From NCBI GenBank assembly GCA_964016885.1, contig OZ024762.1, positions 24,986,001 through 25,050,000 on the forward strand: 64,000 nt of DNA. Direction: 5' to 3'. Below are positions 1 through 64,000 of the stretch, piece by piece; position 1 is the stretch's first letter; each line of letters opens with the position of its first letter. Source of the DNA: Eledone cirrhosa (lineage: Eukaryota). Below the pieces are notes generated by a model. The model was not told the DNA's origin. It did not search any database and worked only from the letters and a program-made list of their open reading frames with translations. The translations under genes and the position numbers were made by a program.

Positions 1-463
1 TTGGGACAGGTTCTCCACCGCCAGATTTTACCTAGATTAGAAATGAATAATTTATTTGGCTCCAATGGACAACAAAAAAACGAGAATTTTACTTTCGAAA
101 AAGGATTTAGCTTCAAGATACACGTGCATATTAATGAGTAAGTAAGATGCAAGCGACTTTCATTGGCCACCTTCATCTATACATAAATTAAGAGAACAAA
201 AGAATCTCACATTAGCCGGTAAGGTAAGATTTTTTTGTTATCTTAGCAATGTTAATTTTCTTTCTAGTGCATTGTATGGTTTTCAAAATTATTTAAATAT
301 ATATTTTGAACTTCCTTTTCTTTTGTGTATCTATCCTTAGTGACCCTGTCTCTATATTTGTACTCCTGAAGAAGGGCTAAACCTCGACGCGTCTAACTTT
401 CTTTCAGCATTTCCATATAAAGCGTGAAACTAATAATACTTCTTCTATCTCTGTTTATTGTTT

Positions 464-840
<377 letters not shown>

Positions 841-967
841 ATGCCTAACGGCGTGAGAGGCATAGTTGGAGAGCCGTGGTATGTTTTGCTTTTTTCTATA
901 TATTGTTTTAGTGTCAAGGGAAATAACTATTCTGAGTAAGTTAAGAACGTATGAAAACGAGTTAAAA

Positions 968-1103
968 TTATTATTATTATTATTATTAATATTATTATCA
1001 TTATTATTTTTTAATATTGTTGTTGTTGTTGGTGTTGTTATTGTTGTTGTGATTATTATTATTATTATTATTATTATTATTGTTGTTGTTGTTGTTGTTG
1101 TTA

Positions 1104-1152
<49 letters not shown>

Positions 1153-1216
1153 CATTATTGTTGTTGTTGTTGTTATTATTATTATTATTATTTTTATTAT
1201 TATTTTTATTATTATT
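968..1216. repeat. (ATT)n/(GTT)n trinucleotide microsatellite
   Basis: Direct reading. Confidence 0.95.
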
Positions 1217-1444
1217 AAGCAAGAATTGCCACAGAGACTGTTGTAGTGTTTGTGTATCGTTTATTTATATATTTCTGTATTTTTTTCAAAACAATAGAAT
1301 TATATTAGAAAACGGTACAGCGTAGAAGATATCATGGTAGATTATTATTTATAGATCTTTACGGTTCGGTGACTAAATTCATTTATCTGTATATACAACC
1401 ATCTATCCAGATATATATATATATATAGATAGACACAGACACAA

Positions 1445-1484
<40 letters not shown>

Positions 1485-1525
1485 TATTTATAATTATACC
1501 TATATTATTTATCTATACATATACA

Positions 1526-1644
<119 letters not shown>

Positions 1645-1749
1645 TTCGTTTTTTAATTTGTTTTGCAAGATTTCTCATCTGAGAACGTGTGTTTTTATTC
1701 GCAGCATGACCCTCCCAACGTATAACAACTTATATATATATATATATAT

Positions 1750-2195
1750 GCAAAAGTTCTATTTAAATTGTTGGGATACAACAAGCAAATATTTTTATAA
1801 CTGATACAAAGCACTCGACAAGTATTTGGAGTAAATATACGATATTAACAAATGGAAACTATATTTATAAAACCATATCTATTTTATTATACATATTTCA
1901 AGGATACCATGTTAAATGATGGTATGCTTTCATCAGATAAAACACAATATATACCAGTTTTATAAATAAATATTGACATACCCTTTCAAAATGCAACCGT
2001 TACTTTTTGAAGACATCTGATGTCTTCCAAAAGTAACTGTTGCATTTTGAAAGGGTATGTCAATATTTATTTATAAAACTGGTATATATTGTGTTTTATC
2101 TGATGAAAGCATACCATCATTTAACATGGTATCCTTGAAATATGTATAATAAAATAGATATGGTTTTATAAATATAGTTTCCATTTGTTAATATC

Positions 2196-2200
<5 letters not shown>
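1750..2200. mobile_element. Hammerhead-bearing fold-back element, family D (Penelope pLTR-like)
   Basis: Near-perfect palindrome 1836-2200 centred at 2018, plus a unique left tail 1750-1835. Flanked by (TA)n. Second copy at 34758-35142. Confidence 0.8.
2094..2154 (+). ncRNA. Type I hammerhead ribozyme (minimal stem III); mirror copy on - strand at 1882-1942
   Basis: UUUUAU-CUGAUGA-[aagcAUACCAU..AUGGUAUccuu]-GAAA-UAUGUA-UA^AUAAAA. Confidence 0.8.
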
Positions 2201-2287
<87 letters not shown>

Positions 2288-2336
2288 GTATGTATATAGA
2301 CGTATATATATATCTATCTCACGCTCATGTAATATG

Positions 2337-2394
<58 letters not shown>

Positions 2395-2935
2395 GAACCA
2401 GCGTCCGAAACGTGTTTTCAACATAGTCACTGGAAAGAAGCAATGCAGATATTTAATACGAAGAGTTGAAATTAATGCATGCAATATTTCACAGCTCTAG
2501 CATGTCCAATTTATAATCAGCCTCCGAACCTTTCAACTCACTCTCGTAAATGCAGAGTATTTGGAAGAAAAGAGACAATACTGTTTTGTTATCATCCCTC
2601 TTGTAATAGGAGCCTTAGGAATAGTGTCAAGAAGGTTAAATGGCTGAATGGATCTGTTGGATATAGAGGTGAGTTTCGTGACTCTACAGAATACATATTT
2701 GTTTTGTAGGCAGAACAAAGAACTTTAAGAAAGAGCTAGATTGATAAGGATGAAGAAATACAGCTTCGTTGGTATCTAGTTATCAAATAACGTCGAAAAA
2801 ACAATTACAAAATGCAGAGAGAAAAATGCTGAACAACAACCACCACCACCATCACCACCACCACCACCACCACCACCACCACCACCACCACAACGACCAC
2901 CACCACAACAACAACAAGACCAACACCAACAGTAA

Positions 2936-3572
2936 CGGTTTCTGATTGAGGCACCAAGCTAACAATTTTAGGGGAAAGGGAAAGTTGATTAAACGACCCC
3001 AGTACATTACTGGTACTTTATTTTATCGACCCCGTAAGCATGAAAGGTAAAGAAAACCTCGTTCGTGATTTGAATTCAGAATGTAAAGGGGCGTAACTCT
3101 CTGCTGCAAAGCATGGTGTCTGACCCTCTACCAATACTACCAATCCACCGCCCTTAATAATGGTTTCTTATATAGGCACAAGGCCAGTAATTTAGGGGGA
3201 GGGGAAAGTCGATTAAATCGACTCCAGTGCGTGACTGGTACTTTATTTTATCGACCCCGTAAGGATGAAAGGCAAAGTTAACCTCGGCGGGATTTGAGCT
3301 CAGATCATAAAGGGCCGTAACTCTATGCTGCAAAACATGGCGTCCGACCCTCTACCGATACTGCCAATCCACCGCTCTAATAATAATAACACTTGTTTCT
3401 ATTCTTGGCACAAGCCCCGCAATTACCCCAGTGCATTACTGGTACTTTATATTTTTTGAACCCGTAAGAATAAAAGGCAAAGTTAACATCGGCGGGATTT
3501 GGACTCCGACCGTAACACTATGCTGCAAAGCATGGCGTCCGACCTTCTACCGATTCTGCCAACCCACCGCCC
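2936..3572 (-). mobile_element. Three tandem tRNA-derived SINE copies
   Basis: On the minus strand: ggcggtggattggcagtatcggtagagggtcggacgcc (A-box-like), gagttcaaatc (B-box-like), conserved core ctttcatccttacggggtcgataaa, 3' end ...ttgtgcc..gaaac(att)n. Confidence 0.85.
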
Positions 3573-3586
3573 GAATGATATTGATG

Positions 3587-3653
<67 letters not shown>

Positions 3654-3654
3654 G

Positions 3655-3900
3655 GGGTCTAATGATTACTTATCGCAAATCCCAGGAAACCCGCGTATAG
3701 GAGAAATACAAAAGATAGTACTAATGGGAACTGCCCATATACTAAGGAAGATTCTGTCAATATAAGTACATCACAAGTCTAAACACTAAAGATGCATGTG
3801 TGAGTATGTGTGTTCTTTCTTGAACATGGCGGACCTTGTTGTCTCTTGAGGTCACTGGTTGTGACTTGGTGATAACTCGTATGAACATAAAGCAAGATAA
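3655..3900 (+). mobile_element. 3' end of RLE-type (R4/Dong-like) LINE between (AAT)n tracts
   Basis: Translates to ...IPGNPRIGEIQKIVLMGTAHILRKILSI*, a typical RLE LINE C-terminus, followed by a short UTR and (AAT)n. Confidence 0.7.
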
Positions 3901-3929
3901 ATGCAACTGTAATAATAATAATAATAATG

Positions 3930-5452
3930 ATTTCATTTATTAGCCACCAGGGCCGACATATAGGGGACAATACAAAGACAGGGACAGTGGGAGTTTACAA
4001 TAAGGTGGAGTAAAAGTGCACAATGGCAAGACTAATTTAACAATGAAAATATAAAAATATAAAATAAACTATGCATAAATATAACAAAATAAATTCCCCG
4101 ATAGGGGGTGTACGACCCTGGGGTGCTTCAGGTACCCCACCAATCCTGAACCACCCTGCGCTTCTAGGGCACCCAGGGAGAGCACCCTTCTCCTCAAGTT
4201 AGCTAGCCTATAGGCGCATGGTCAACATTCATCCACCTTTTAGCAAATGTACTGGGGGACAGCACTTCTCTCTCCACCCTCACCTTGCTTTCCAGGTGAA
4301 ACTTGAAGAAGTTGATGAGGGATTGGCCGAAGAGAAAAGTGTCTGTCTTCAGTCCTTTTAATCTGGTCCACCATATAACCTCTTTCGCAACGGCCACCAG
4401 ACAGAGGAAAATTGCCTGCTCTTCCTAACCTAAGGAAGGCGGCGGGTCGATCTTCACTATGGACTCGGCCGATAGCCGGATTCGTTCCACACGCGACAGT
4501 AGCTGTTCGACATAACTCCACAAGTCAGTAATGCACGGACATTGGACAAGTGCGTGCAGAATGGTTTCGTCGTTCTGTGCGCATCTTGAGCACGTACGTC
4601 TGACAGCACTTCCGTGCCTGTAGAGTTTATCCCGAACCGGCAGTGCCCCCCGGTAGCACTGCTAAGTGAGGGATTTGTGGAAATTGTCCATCGTCCCCGG
4701 CTCGAAATTCCTCCGGTACAGACTGGTCAGTTCGCCTTCGTCGAGGCCCAAAGCTTCTCCGAGTGCGTCATCGCACTTGTCCAGCACTAATCCTCTATAG
4801 AACTCGAGAGTGGAAGTCCCACTGATCTCATTGCCCGCTTAGTAGAGGGCAGTGAGTGCCTGGCAGCATTCCAGGTGCCAGTCACCCAGTCTCGGTTTCT
4901 TCTTGACCCAGGACTGCAGCTCAGTCAAAGAAACCAGCTGCGGAAAGGCCCGTCTGATAAACAGCGACCTGTTCACCGTTTAGGCAGAATATCTGGAGAT
5001 GTCGCAGCCCCAACGCATGTCTGCGCAACATTAGCTACGGCATGCCTAGCCCTCCGCGTAGACGGTGCTGGCAGCAGATGGACCGCCTCACCAACGGAAC
5101 TGGTCCCCTCCACAAGAATTTGAAGAGCAGCCGTTCCAACTTGACGAGGCGCGGACGGGGGAAAGGCACGACTGTCAGGCGGTAGTAGATGACGGACGCG
5201 ATGTACGCATTCGCCACCTCCGCGTGACCTTTCAGTGATAGCTTCCTCCCAGCCCATTTTTGGGTAAGACTTCCTACTCTGCTTGTTACCTCATCCCAAT
5301 TCTTTTCCACCTGGAGGTCTGGTCCGAACCAGACCCCGAGCAACTTTACCGGTCCGTCCATCCAGCGCCCCACGACGCTGTTGGACGACATGAGCTTGCC
5401 TCTCCAGGTTCCGAGCTGCAAGCCCACCGATTTTTTCCGGGTTAAATTTGGC
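3930..5452 (-). pseudogene. 5'-truncated Tx1/L1-clade LINE (late RT, C-terminal zinc finger and 3'UTR)
   Basis: GLQLGTWRGK...VKLLGVWFGPDLQVEKNW...LSLKGHAEVANAYIASVIYYRL...GGLGMP, then CSRCAQNDETILH. Paralogous to 10740-12250. Confidence 0.9.
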
Positions 5453-12671: not shown

Positions 12672-13298
12672 GGGAAATACCACCAGTGTATGGAATCTAT
12701 AACCTATGAAAGGCAGACTATAGACACGATAATTAAAAATATAAATTAAAGCGTAAATAAATACCTCTATAACTATATAACACACGTAAAAATCCAAAGA
12801 GATCTGTTTCGTCAGTAAGTTGTTGACAGAAATGGAATAACCTCGGTTCTTCAGCGTGTGTAAGCCTATACATTTCAGACAACACTAACAATTTTTAAAA
12901 GTGACTGTCCAGCTACACGTGGGAGAGAGTCTTTCCTCTCTCTCTGTTTGGTTGAGCACACTTCTCTGAGTGCTGCCCTTTCTAGCAGCTCGTCCCTCTG
13001 AGGCCACTGGTTCACTGCCCTTAAACACGCATGATTTCTCTCTCCCACGTGTAGTTGGACAGTCACTTTTAAAAATTATCTTAGTATTGTCTGAAATGTA
13101 TAGCCTTACACACGCTGAAGAACCGTGGTTATTCCATTTCTGTCAACAACTTACTGGCGAAACAGATCTCTTTGGATTTGTACGTGTGTTCTATAGTTAT
13201 AGAGGTATTTATTTACGCTTTAATTTATATTTTTAATTATCGTGTCTGTAGTCTGCCTTTCATAGGTTATAGATTCCATACACTGGTGGTTTTTCCCT
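12672..13298. mobile_element. Large fold-back element (~260 bp arms, ~105 bp spacer) with mirrored hammerheads
   Basis: 12672-12929 is the reverse complement of 13036-13298, with a few substitutions. Confidence 0.85.
13108..13189 (+). ncRNA. Type I hammerhead ribozyme, fully formed; mirror copy on - strand at ~12780-12861
   Basis: ACACACG-CUGAAGA-[stem II]-GAAA-CAGAUC(ucuuug)GAUUUG-UA^CGUGUGU. Stem I has 7 bp and stem III 6-7 bp. Confidence 0.85.
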
Positions 13299-13371
13299 GT
13301 TTTATTGACGGCGCACTGTATCTCTCTCTAGTGTGTTACCTTTTCAACATATATATATATATTTATATATA

Positions 13372-13695
13372 TATAAAGAAGAAATTATAAGATGTTTAAA
13401 AAAGTTCCATATAGTTTATTATGCGCATGTACAGTCAACATATGTTCACTGGACACTTTCTTGTTCACAAGTGTTTTTAGGCCTCATATTATGTTACCTT
13501 ATTTTATCTGATGAGAACATAATTTTTGTCCCATGATTATGTTATTTTCGAAATGCGCATAAAAATATATATGGAACTGTTTTAACCCTCTTTTAATTTC
13601 TTCTTTATATATACTCCAGTTCTACCAAATGTCGAGTGCTACTTATCTGATATATGCATAATTTTATTGTTCTACAATATTACTCACCTCCTACA
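13372..13695 (+). mobile_element. Family A fold-back element with hammerhead (13500-13568) and 3' tail
   Basis: Short inverted arm 13372-13430. CUGAUGA at 13508, GAAAUGCGCAUA at 13550. Tail ends ...actcacctcctac. Confidence 0.75.
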
Positions 13696-13727: not shown

Positions 13728-14348
<621 letters not shown>

Positions 14349-15589: not shown

Positions 15590-15683
15590 GAAGTAATTCC
15601 GTCGGAAAGGTCCAGGATAAAAGAGTGCTCTATGTAGTTTACAGAGCTTATTAGTTTATGTAATAAACAACATAAGATAATTA

Positions 15684-15743
15684 TTTCATTTACCAGTGGT
15701 TTCTTGAAAGCAAACACATTTGCTTTCAATCGTCAGAATGAAA
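15684..15743 (-). ncRNA. Type I hammerhead ribozyme (family F), intact
   Basis: UUUCAUU-CUGACGA-UUGAAAGCAAA(ugug)UUUGCUUUCAA-GAAA-CCACUGG-UA^AAUGAAA. Stem I has 7 bp and stem II 11 bp. Confidence 0.88.
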
Positions 15744-15852
15744 AATTCGTGGTGTTTATTTTTTATGTGGATTTGAAAACCAAAATATAAGAAATATGAA
15801 AGTGAAGCTCAGGGAAGAAGACAAAAAAGATTATAAATATATAAGTATATAA

Positions 15853-15986: not shown

Positions 15987-16319
15987 ATACATATATATAC
16001 ACGCACATACACACACACACAATTATACAAATAAGCAAAGATGAATAAACAAACATATACACACTCGATCATGCGCATATACTAAAATAAGCAGTTACAA
16101 CAACTAGCCAAGATAAATCAGTAAAAAATAAAGTCAAATATAAAAATAAAAAATAAAAAATAAAAAATTAGCAAGTTGACAGCGATACGAAAGAAGAAAA
16201 AACACAAATAAAAATAAATAAATAAATAAACAAAAACACGTGGTAATCAAATGCACAAAATAAAATAAATATATATATATAAATATAAATATACATATAT
16301 ATATATATACATATATATA

Positions 16320-16447
16320 TTTTATTATGCGCATTTCAAAAACAAATATCATGCAATAACATATACTCCAGTCCTACAAATTGTAGAGTGCTTCTTATCC
16401 AATATCTGCATTGCTTTATTGTACTACAATAAAACTCACCTCCTACA
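16320..16447. mobile_element. Family A remnant (inverted half-hammerhead joined to tail)
   Basis: ttattatgcgcatttc followed by tactccagtcctac...actcacctcctac, in (TA)n. Confidence 0.7.
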
Positions 16448-17978: not shown

Positions 17979-18306
<328 letters not shown>

Positions 18307-20705
18307 TATATATATATATGTAGAAGGTGAGTAATATTGTAGAACAATAAAACTATGCATATATCAGATAAGTAAGACTAATTGCCTGTAAGACTAATTG
18401 CTCCTTCTAAAGCTGACCTAGGGGTTGTTAGGATATCCATCTTGGATAGAATTATCCCACAGGTTAGGTCTAAATCTCAATTACATTTATGGTTGGGTTC
18501 TTCTGATGTAATAGACTGGTTCAATGACCTGAATAATAAAAACAAACTGAAATGTATTCAATTAGACATTGCTAGCTATTACTCTTCTATTTCTCCTTCA
18601 CTCCTAAACAAGGCTCTCTCTCATATGCGTTAAAATACACGGACATTATTTGTGAAGAAATAAAAATAGTTCTCACCGCAAGGAAAACCATCTTGGAATT
18701 TTACAATGAATATTGGACAAGAGCGGATACTTCCAACAATTTCGACATCACCATGGGTTCATCGGATTCAGCTCAATTGACCGACTTGGTTGGAATTTTC
18801 ATCTTGAACCTTTTAAACCGGAAAACTCCTTAACTTCGCGGTGGAATTTATCGTGATGATGCTCTTTTTACTGTCTCTAATTGTAACAAAGTAACCTTTA
18901 ATATTAAGAAAAATATACTTGATCTATTTAAGCATCTTAACTTAAAAATTGAATTCGAGAATAAAGATAAATTAGCAAATTTCCTTGATATATCCCTTAA
19001 TCTAGATACCGGCCTATATTACCCATATCATAAGGACAATGAGAACCTAAATTACGTTAACTTTAAATCTAACCACCCTAATAATGTTAAAAATGCTATA
19101 GTCAGAAGTGTAGAAAAAAGAATTTCTAATTTATCTTCTAATAAAGATATCTTTGAAGTTAATGCCAAATATTATAATAATGCGCTATCTTGGGCTGGAT
19201 ATGCAGACAAAATTAGATATACTAAGGAAACTAATCTTGGCAGAACTTATAGTAACTATAGTAATGTAGCTAGTAATAATTATACCACTAACACAAGGAG
19301 GACACCTAGATATAAAAATATCCTTTGGTACAACCCTCCATTCTCTCTTTCCGTTATTAATAATATCCCTAAATAATTTTTTAGGGCTTTATATAACAGC
19401 TTCCCTCCTCCACATATATATAGCAAGATTTTCAATAAGCATACTATTAAATTCTCATATTCCACTACTTCCAACATTTCTAAAATTATCTCAAGACATA
19501 ATTCTAAAATTATTAAAGAATAACTCATATGCATCCAACCATGAGAGTCATAATAATAACACTATAAGGCCCGACGTCAATGTAAACTCTAGGCAAAATA
19601 ACACAAGTATAAATACGACGTCAAACGTAACTTTGAGGAATGCTTCAAATAGTAATGTAAATCTGGATACTTTAGAACCTCCTTTAGTTAATTCCACCAC
19701 TCCAGTTCCTAATATAATTAACCCTGGGCCACTTGCCAATAACACTGTAAATAATCTTAATCGTAAATGCAACTGCCCTATTAGAACTAATTGTGTTCTT
19801 AGTAATTTCTGTAATATGAATGTAAAGTGGTAACTAGTACCAATACCTATATCTACATTGGCTCTACTTCCACATCTTTTAAAGCAAGACTCTACATTTA
19901 AATCTCCACTTAAAAGGACCAGCACCGCACTCTCAGAACTTATTTGTTCCTTAAAAGACAAAAACATTAATTACGAAATTTCTTGGCGTAAAATCTACAA
20001 TGCTCCTCCATACTCAAATGCTTCCATATGTAGCGTTTGTAATTTATGTCTAGTTGAAAAATTTACCATTAACTCGAATTTCAACTCTATAATAAATAGA
20101 AGAACAGATTTATTTGGTCTTTGTAATCATAAATCCTTCAAAACCTTTCACAAAGTATATAGCTAATGTCCTATAATATATTCCACGAATAACGGTTAAT
20201 TTTATACACATATACTTTTTTACACATATTTTTTACACATATTTCATTATATTCTACAATGTATTAATTCAGTTTTCTCAGCATATTTTAAGCCTTTCAC
20301 CTTTTTTCGATAGCCTTAAATTTTCGTTCAAACCTTCGTAGATTTTGTAAACATGACGTCATATGTAAACATGACGTCATATGTTTTTCTACGTTTATAA
20401 AACTTTCTAGCAATTTCCTTTACTTACTTGTTGATATAAAATAATAATTAAATAGTATACCCCACATATATAGACTTTTAATAGAAACTTTTTATTTTGA
20501 CATAGACTATTTTTATTTTTTGTATTGTATTTTATTTTATTTTAAAAACCTTTTTTATACTTATTTTAATTTAATTTTATTGTATTTTATTTTATTTTAA
20601 AAACATTTTTTATACTTATTTTAATTTAATTTAATTTGATTTTATTAATACATTTTTACACTTCTTAATCCAAGTTTTAGTATGTAAACCCAATATAAAA
20701 TAAGT

Positions 20706-21091
20706 GTTTCTACTTTTGGCCCAAGGCCGGCAATTACTCAGTGTATTACTGGTACTTTATTTTATCGACCCCGTAAGGATGAAATGGAAAGTGAACCTCG
20801 GCGGGATTTGAACTCAGACTATAAAGGGCTGTAACTCTTTGCTGCAAAGCATGGCGTCAGACCCTCTACGGACACTGCCAATCCACCGCCCTTATAAAAT
20901 AATTGTTTCTACTATTGGCACAAGGCCAGAAATTACCCAGTACATTACTGGTACTTTATTTTATCGACCCCGTAAGGATGAAAGGCAAAGTTAACCTCGG
21001 CGGGATTTGAACTCAGAATAGAAAGGGCCGTAACTCTATGCATCAAAGCATGGCGTCCGACCCTCTACCAATACTGCCAATCCACCGCCCT
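20706..21091 (-). mobile_element. Two tandem SINE copies inserted in the Penelope 3'UTR
   Basis: Same SINE consensus as 2936-3572. Confidence 0.85.
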
Positions 21092-21433
21092 TATAAAATA
21101 ATATACCCAGTTTCTATATTTTAGACCTCTAATATTTGAATAGCATCCATAATATTCGCACATACACCTCATCAATTTACTTTTTAACCGTTATCTACAT
21201 CTGTTTTCATTTTGACACCGTTCCTGATCAAAAGTCTCCCACTCTCTCTTTTTCTTTCTCTCTCTTCCTTCTTTCTTCTTTCCTTTTATCCTCTCTTCTA
21301 TTTCCTTTTCCTGTTTCTCCTTCTTTTCTTTTCGTCTATTTTCCTATCTTTTTCTTACTCTTATATTTCTGTTATATGTAGGCTGGACACTTTCTTGTTG
21401 ACAAGTGTTTTTAGGCCTCATATCATGCTACCT

Positions 21434-21503
21434 TATTTTATCTGATGAGAACACAATTTTTGTCCCAGGATGATGTTGTTTTCGAAATGCGCATAATAAA
21501 ATA
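21434..21503 (+). ncRNA. Minimal type I hammerhead (family A)
   Basis: UAUUUUAU-CUGAUGA-gaac..uuc-GAAA-UGCGCA-UA^AUAAAAUA. Confidence 0.82.
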
Positions 21504-21559
21504 TATGGAACTTTTTTAACCATCTTTTAATTTCTTCTATATATATATTTATATATATA

Positions 21560-21714
<155 letters not shown>

Positions 21715-28505: not shown

Positions 28506-28530
28506 GTGTGTGTGTATATATATATATATA

Positions 28531-28940
28531 ATATAAGATCAAAAGATGGTTAAAGGAGTTCCATGTATTTTATTATGCGCATTTCAAAAACAAACATCAT
28601 CATGCAATAATATTTGTGTTTTCATCAGATAAAACAGGAGAACATGATATGAAGGCTAAAAAACACTTGTGGATAGTGCAGTTTGATATATTGATTTAAC
28701 ACTGCACTATCCACAAGTGTTTTTTAGCCTTCATATCATGTTCTCCTGTTTTATCTGATGAAAACACAAATATTATTGCATGATGATGTTTGTTTTTGAA
28801 ATGCGCATAATAAAATACATGGAACTCCTTTAACCATCTTTTGATCTTATATTATGTATACTCCAGTCCTACAAACTGTAGAGTGCTTCTTATCCGATAT
28901 CTGCATTGCTTTATTGTACTACAATAAAACTCACCTACTA

Positions 28941-62999: not shown

Positions 63000-63148
63000 G
63001 ATTTTGCCTGAAGATTTCGTACGAATAAAAGAGTTCTAGTCCTGTAGAAGACATTTCTATAATGAAATTAATATACCTCTACTCTACTAATGTATTGAGT
63101 ATCTTTTTTTAAGCAGTGGTCACCTCCCGATGTGCATCGGGGTTCCCT
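63000..63148 (+). mobile_element. Degenerate family C copy (decayed hammerhead and tail)
   Basis: cctgaagatttcgtacgaataaaagagttctagtcctgtagaa, then tactctactaatgtattgagta. Confidence 0.6.

Positions 63149-63781: not shown

Positions 63782-64000
<219 letters not shown>

Follow-up and report, generated by a model that had tools for sequence, protein, structure and literature searches.

The stretch at 18319–21540 is best read as one 5'-truncated, dead Penelope-like retroelement (PLE) of the Hydra clade, inserted in a single event into a (TA)n target, with the hairpin family A1 as its family's native 3' end (pseudo-LTR plus tail), a reading to which we assign a probability of roughly three in four. 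Positions are those of the window, the whole 64,000 nt of Eledone cirrhosa DNA that was analysed. The domains of the relic, its breaks, the identities of its ends, its target, and the tail motif with its covariation were observed directly. The element itself is ordinary: its clade is known, its architecture has been published, and its family is unlisted. The part worth following is a covarying RNA motif between the two end points of the arms, which is new within the literature searched.

The RT–GIY-YIG relic named in a preliminary description of this DNA is real. By tblastn it is colinear, in broken frames, with homologues of 635–806 aa, both YRDD and YIG are present, and a reverse transcriptase (RT) is followed by a GIY-YIG endonuclease (EN), the order of EN+ PLEs. 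The coding part starts at approximately residue 195 of homologues of 700–800 aa and lies on the plus strand throughout. Homologue matches and sequence delimit the RT core and thumb, 5'-truncated by approximately 195 residues (18382–19520, with YRDD at 18849–18860), translation reveals an Asn/Thr-rich linker (19521–19767) and the CxCX5C linker motif diagnostic of Hydra (CNCPIRTNC, 19768–19794), and homologue matches define a C-terminal GIY-YIG EN without CCHH, spread over two frames (19815–20166; YIG 19854–19862, CxxC 20038–20049, CxH 20122–20130, stop 20164–20166). The RT region has in-frame stops at 18831 and 19374, and frameshifts occur near 18620, 19510, 19810 and 19900; with at least two in-frame stops, four frameshifts and some 195 N-terminal residues missing, the copy is dead. 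Without a later SINE-like insertion the relic is 2.8 kb long, which with the approximately 195 missing codons gives a full length of approximately 3.4 kb or more, so that the description of Hydra elements as "generally short (<3 kb)", which characterises the clade without defining it, does not fit this family.

A search with the RT piece returned 5,693 representatives at E 0.001 or better and 26 long homologues (E 1e-72 to 1e-35), 21 of which carry CxCX5C. RWK is found in 15 of the 26, many of them partial, and DKT in the nearest full-length ones, the N-terminal region being absent from the relic; in the insertion-in-fingers region the relic is colinear with Hydra-type homologues. Pfam gave no RT or GIY-YIG match for six relic pieces and a sub-threshold RVT_1 match for one homologue (P0002), and a PDB profile search gave no matches. 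In a tree that combined 31 of the retrieved homologues, drawn from the top of both lists, with a Neptune-like PLE of the window as outgroup, the sister group of the relic consists of four proteins assigned to Octopus sinensis and Argonauta hians (88/84 support, not starred), a placement that makes an octopod host likely. An O. sinensis protein with the annotation GATA zinc finger-like, P0035 (XP_029653623.1), is a fragment of a Hydra RT and shares 51% identity with the relic.

Membership of the Hydra clade follows from the CxCX5C linker, CxxC and CxH, the absence of CCHH, the type I hammerhead and the (TA)n target. CxCX5C, CxxC, CxH and the lack of CCHH are among the published features of the clade (PMC8557442), and its members Hydra-1_Obim, Penelope-13_HM, Hydra-2_Amil, Hydra-2_Ajap and Hydra-1_Crog share with the relic an RT plus C-terminal GIY-YIG EN, these linker and EN motifs, a type I hammerhead and (TA)n insertion (PMC8557442). 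Published descriptions of PLEs and of Hydra include (TA)n targets, tails on one side and 5'-truncated copies in inverted orientation, and a copy of the latter kind is listed for the 5' end of Penelope-13_HM (PMC8557442). The relic likewise combines an inverted, 5'-truncated copy with a tail confined to one end, sits in (TA)n, and has a canonical type I hammerhead in its pLTR as predicted by descriptor scan. Neptune, Nematis, Poseidon and Naiad were rejected, the relic having no CCHH in its EN, no CX2-5CxxC linker and no N-terminal EN. Hydra-1_Obim was also rejected as its family, as the hammerhead and 3' end differ when compared by eye with Files S2 and S7 of PMC8557442. Compared with published Hydra elements, the relic family has a longer 3' UTR, long Asn-rich linkers and a long hammerhead loop 2, and its tail of approximately 85–90 nt exceeds the 30–40 bp given for PLEs (PMC8557442).

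The relic is flanked by a short (TA)n target run on the left (18308–18318) and another on the right (21541–21635), and no TA run was seen on inspection of its two inner junctions. It begins, as had been proposed, with an inverted family A tail: 18319–18374, on the minus strand, matches 13640–13695 of A1 on the opposite strand (96%, 56 nt, E 2e-20) and represents the final 56 nt of the A1 tail, to the distal end point. The proposed fusion of this tail to RT sequence through a short duplication was likewise borne out, the junction (18371–18400, plus strand) combining an imperfect tail/RT microhomology (6/8 nt) with a 14-nt direct duplication of period 16 (18371–18384 and 18387–18400). At the other end, the hammerhead arm that the preliminary description placed at 21380–21540 is present and 91% identical to A1, but homology starts at 21374; BLAST of 18100–21600 against the window aligned 21374–21547 with 13440–13613 (91%, 174 nt, E 1e-66). 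This arm (21374–21540, plus strand) comprises an upstream stem-loop, a type I hammerhead and an end at the internal TA point, and in arm alignments the short arms of A1, A2a and A2b do stop at that same point, as claimed. The descriptor scan placed the hammerhead core at 21442–21495, with an 8-bp stem I formed by 21434–21441 and 21496–21503, the core element at 21442–21448, GAAA at 21484–21487, a palindromic stem III and a predicted cut after 21495; Rfam gave no ribozyme match over 20650–21545. Metazoan PLE hammerheads with palindromic stem III have been described as probably dimer-dependent (PMC4209133).

By alignment of their arms, the family A hairpins of the window form two sequence subfamilies. 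A1 has one member (13368–13695, plus strand, tail motif at 13613–13637), the sole close match to both relic ends by BLAST, and three of the four loci belong to A2: hairpin a (13848–14290, minus strand, motif at 13904–13928), mini-hairpin c (16290–16447, plus strand, motif at 16365–16389) and hairpin b (28520–28942, plus strand, motif at 28860–28884). Immediately 5' of the A1 hairpin lies a 626-nt palindrome (12672–13297) unrelated to family A by BLAST. The exact family A pattern had no match in metagenome contigs and ten in viral contigs, none of which was confirmed, and neither A1 nor the relic UTR had DNA similarity to the 79 loci surveyed for the tail motif. All four family A loci are inverted pairs, and the direct tandem repeats of hammerhead monomers that define retrozymes were not found. 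Non-LTR retrozymes (PMC7229834; bioRxiv 10.64898/2026.07.22.740005) resemble family A as short, non-coding, hammerhead-bearing derivatives of PLE pLTRs, for which dependence on PLEs has been proposed, but they are direct tandem arrays or monomers, whereas family A copies are inverted asymmetric pairs.

The relic had been put forward as the probable autonomous driver of family A, which overstates its role: the copy is broken and 5'-truncated, drives nothing itself, and matches A1 only. Its family is probably behind A1, and may be its source, and is not the driver of A2. The relic arm is 91% identical to A1 and 77–78% to the A2 arms, which are 96–98% alike, the tail matches A1 at 53 of 55 positions and the A2 tails at 44–46, and A2 sequence upstream of 21401 is unlike that of the relic. 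A2 is younger than A1 and, because the relic ends match A1 (96% tail, 91% arm) and A2 hairpins overall at 77–84% only, it points to a sister master or to mobilisation in trans. We lean towards the view, compatible with the single-insertion reading, that most family A hairpins (A2) spread non-autonomously from short RNAs, or from a sister master outside the window. This is favoured by the similarity among A2 arms and their divergence from the relic, by hairpin centres that recur at one place (65–85 nt upstream of the hammerhead core) with differing junction sequences, an indication of either a strong stop or short template RNAs, and by read depth over the arm in one organism far above that of the ORF, depth giving no copy number; against it, heavy 5' truncation alone yields a large 3'-end excess in PLEs (PMC8557442).

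The tail motif is a small stem/2-nt-bulge/stem. Its GCTC...GAGC signature follows the hammerhead cut site at a distance of 36–56 nt in 19 of the 25 distinct, unrelated Hydra families scored, compared with 2% of shuffled tails. The 39 loci considered contain 32 distinct hammerheads, of which seven had too little sequence behind them and 25 were scored. Among 31 distinct motif copies from 79 loci, a second stem lies inside the first after a 2-nt bulge, mostly TT or TC. Its inner pairs are formed in 77 of 93 cells, compared with 22–37 of 93 for other bulge lengths, and none of 10,000 partner shuffles scored as high, a statistic that ignores the kinship of loci and concerns a pattern defined after the data were seen. 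RNAalifold recovered the same structure, with two-sided changes at four of seven pairs and 99% pairing, from a hand-picked 30 of 43 copies that omits several poor fits, the unselected figure being the 77 of 93. In family A the motif lies 50 nt from the cut site and has A-U in place of the outer G-C, a compensatory change, and a second true but unrelated Hydra EN relic (57837–58531) carries it as well, also with a compensatory outer pair. Across the 12 window copies examined, pairing is formed in 34 of 36 cells, and a strict scan of the window found 13 matches at 11 sites (mean 1.4 and maximum 5 in 100 shuffles). The motif is absent from the 3' region of the window's sole Neptune-like PLE. Many Hydra loci (L008, L039, L052, L065, L071, L074 and L077) have a tandem motif pair, 30–50 nt apart, in the leader before the ORF.

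The folding energy of the motif is weak (-1.8 to -8 kcal/mol alone) and it was the minimum-energy fold in none of four whole tails, so its formation would need protein or context. It is visible in published Hydra consensi, without a mention found in the accessible text of PMC8557442; in the part of that paper's supplement examined, three 9-mers of the motif's 3' half occur at least six times, at least four of them in Hydra consensi, including two just upstream of the Hydra-1_Ajap ORF. No description was found in the available text of PMC8557442, in the retrozyme texts or in literature searches; these sources exclude figures, most subscription papers and Repbase reports, so the motif may be in print.

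The window holds several other PLE-derived repeats. The second Hydra family (57837–58531) consists of an EN fragment 35% identical in protein to the relic EN, a short UTR, its own hammerhead (58399) and a tail motif (58471–58490), between (TA)n runs. A near full-length but degenerate PLE on the minus strand (42400–39340) has a CCHH-type EN, is Neptune-like by motifs and includes a decayed hammerhead-like stretch but no tail motif. In a further asymmetric hairpin family (1770–2204 and 34758–35149) stem I of the hammerhead is identical to that of family A, and the tail motif is confined to one of the arms. Another hairpin family (18139–18307, 45830–45971, 63007–63130 and 63876–64000) includes a copy adjoining the 5' flank of the relic; this 18139 copy has no tail motif, and relatives carry one at 45894 and 63081. 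In a tail-motif hairpin family at 45580–45765 and approximately 47500–47700 the short arms end 6–7 nt before the motif, at a foot that is not TA-rich. A solo end on the minus strand (15590–15760) has a well-formed hammerhead (12-bp stem II) and a canonical GCTC...GAGCACT motif, and hammerhead-like cores at 57424 (minus strand), 58850 and 49037 have no tail motif within 130 nt.

Alignment of all arms revealed two recurrent end points, the internal TA point and the tail end some 85–90 nt further on. Short arms end at the 5' foot of the motif: inverted partner arms stop at -7 to +1 of its first base in seven of the 12 window copies and at -29 in one, four having no usable partner, and tail arms reach a TA or CA run 40–63 nt past the motif in ten of the 12. 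Two of the seven partner-arm ends have no TA directly at the foot, hence the position of the arm end is not set by target homology alone. In the relic the long arm stops at the internal TA point and the short inverted one at the tail end; of the tail, only the 26 nt of the motif are missing from the two arms taken together, a single case. The preliminary description had seen in this the same asymmetric architecture as in the hairpins, with one long cDNA arm, and to the extent that both ends are A1-type, inverted and at the two recurrent end points, this stands; it does not extend to the position of the tail, which is on the short arm of the relic but on the longer arm of the hairpins. The shared architecture is supported by the Hydra-type motif in family A tails and by an unrelated Hydra locus with a like asymmetry (L018), where the inverted 5' arm ends just before the motif and the 3' arm runs through it to (TA)n. 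Both ends can occur within one family, L030 stopping before the motif and L026 after it.

These end points suggest a scheme in which the RT-endonuclease would bind the small stem/2-nt-bulge/stem in its own RNA, approximately 50 nt 3' of the hammerhead, and nick both strands of a (TA)n target. Of the two cDNAs then started, one would begin at the internal TA point, which is the 5' foot of the motif, and the other at the tail end, approximately 58 nt beyond the motif, and the two would be joined head to head through microhomology. Pairing of a short cDNA with another short one would give the family A hairpins, and a 2.8-kb cDNA with a 56-nt one the relic, into which the SINE-like pair would have inserted afterwards; an intact master of the relic's family could have made A1, with A2 made by a sister master or copied in trans. 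From the arm ends we infer that the motif probably positions the two reverse-transcription start sites, and that pairing of the two cDNAs would produce the asymmetric hairpins, although the arms overlap in A1, A2a and A2b, which calls for strand displacement or for two RNAs as templates. More tentatively, at a little under even odds, the motif (a 4-bp stem, 2-nt pyrimidine bulge and 2–4-bp stem, then RCT) may be a cis RNA element common to the whole Hydra clade, bound by an RT-EN dimer and measuring two fixed start sites, one on each side.

In the twin priming of L1 elements, two primed cDNAs joined by microhomology give rise to 5' inversions. The scheme for the relic family differs in that both starts would be fixed internal RNA sites, with no poly(A) and no target-site duplication visible in (TA)n. 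A Poseidon PLE of Anolis carolinensis (PAc) nicks and extends both target strands in vitro, with two internal start sites defining the tail and hammerhead cleavage dispensable (PMC11167929). It thus resembles the scheme for Hydra in its two internal RT starts, its use of both strands, its AT-rich target and a stem-loop start region, but belongs to another clade, and its start sites lie in an AC-rich stem-loop within the ORF, 111–118 nt from the start codon (PMC11167929), unlike those of the relic family, which would flank the motif in a non-coding leader, approximately 85–90 nt apart. It is unlikely that the hairpins instead arose through fold-back of a single cDNA: A1, A2a and family C do have short palindromes at their centres, but the arms of the relic and of A2c do not overlap, the short arm of A1 has an internal deletion, and the fixed end of the second arm beside the motif would be left unexplained.

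Between the stop and the arm, the 3' UTR of the relic consists of a proximal part (20167–20693, plus strand), which by read mapping recurs in public runs at ORF-like depth and in which neither a hammerhead core nor a tail motif was found, and a distal part (21102–21373, plus strand), CT-rich from 21235. A palindromic 14-mer, duplicated and holding a TGACGTCA site, lies in this UTR at 20353–20380. The two parts are separated by two tandem copies, each of approximately 200 nt, of a very abundant SINE-like repeat (20694–21101; BLAST, read depth and sequence), which may be the common octopus SINE. As these two abundant-repeat copies lie between three copies of a 10-nt repeat (at 20694, 20893 and 21092), they represent a later insertion foreign to the element. 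Without them the distance from stop to hammerhead is 877 nt in the relic, compared with 79–524 nt in 38 of 39 Hydra loci (39 of the 65 metagenome loci with a locatable ORF end had a hammerhead downstream).

Reads were mapped from four of ten public runs, representing at most three samples and two organisms, A and B, with depths that do not give copy numbers. All 30 bins of the relic were covered in all four runs, and copies of the ORF, and of the UTR as far as 21234, recur in each, 21125–21234, 3' of the SINE pair, having ORF-like depth (4349, 5596, 2964 and 21). Among the pieces listed, 181–488 nt long, divergence from the relic is approximately 9–15%, so both organisms, A and B, have further copies of the ORF and the proximal UTR; every contig covering the two stops has a different base there. 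Organism A shows the depth profile of a 5'-truncating element with family A as its 3' end, with depths of 438 and 634 over 21235–21344 (21235–21285 skipped) and then 42,000–550,000 over the arm. In organism B (run X5) depth is 31 and 40 over 21235–21454, compared with 455–4470 in ORF bins, and is high both over the tail and over the final 86 nt of the arm, so that its copies either diverge at 21235–21454 or end otherwise. No contig bridging UTR and arm was found among the contigs, joints and loose ends listed for the four runs, and the UTR–arm link rests on a single locus and the tail motif. A base difference at 21373 in 21 and 30 contigs was discarded as bridging evidence, as A1 hairpin centres share that base, and read-end piles in run X8, located at AATT or GCATGC-like sites, were attributed to library restriction sites. 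Nor is the link refuted by the different 3' end that follows the second Hydra EN, at 57837, as this is a different family.

The single-insertion reading is weakened by the missing bridge, the fall in depth in organism B and the 877-nt distance, and it also has to accommodate a homology between relic and A1 that begins exactly at the A1 hairpin centre, in a window crowded with PLE ends, one of which abuts the 5' flank of the relic. It is favoured by two A1-type ends in inverted orientation, the lack of TA runs at the inner junctions and the Hydra motifs in the relic and its homologues, and further by the tail motif that family A shares with Hydra families, the two recurrent end points, the recurrence of ORF and UTR in all four runs and the in vitro behaviour of the Poseidon PLE. 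Most of the former points would also suit a coincidental composite, in which a Hydra fragment decayed, its own 3' end being lost, and pieces of A1 came to lie beside it, through insertion or recombination, in a TA-rich hot spot: the UTR is long, homology starts at the A1 hairpin centre beside TATAT, organism B lacks 21235–21454 and many other PLE ends are close by. We consider this very unlikely, as it requires two independent A1 events in the right orientations with complementary end points where 64 kb contain one other A1 copy, and as the 5' tail is joined inside the ORF through microhomology and not at a TA run, the UTR has no leftover hammerhead or motif, and depth in organism A persists through 21235–21344. 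Just as improbable is a one-event chimera, with priming of both cDNAs on A1 RNA followed by a template switch of the RT, at the 5' boundary of A1, to RNA from another Hydra family; a different master would then own family A. It would account for a homology boundary at a recurrent hairpin centre and for the profile of organism B, but in the relic pairing at the base of the upstream stem-loop extends from 21374 onwards, no junction scar was seen, and the UTR would be without its own hammerhead.

The choice of internal start sites and the formation of tails and inverted repeats in PLEs are stated to be open questions (PMC8557442; PMC11167929). If the proposed role of the motif is true, start sites measured from it would explain both the one-sided tail and the asymmetric inverted insertions, and any short RNA that carries it, such as those of the family A hairpins, could spread as a non-autonomous element. 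The motif is also a precise thing to move or unpair in the existing in vitro assay, and it marks hairpin repeats without an ORF as Hydra-derived, which aids repeat annotation in genomes rich in them.
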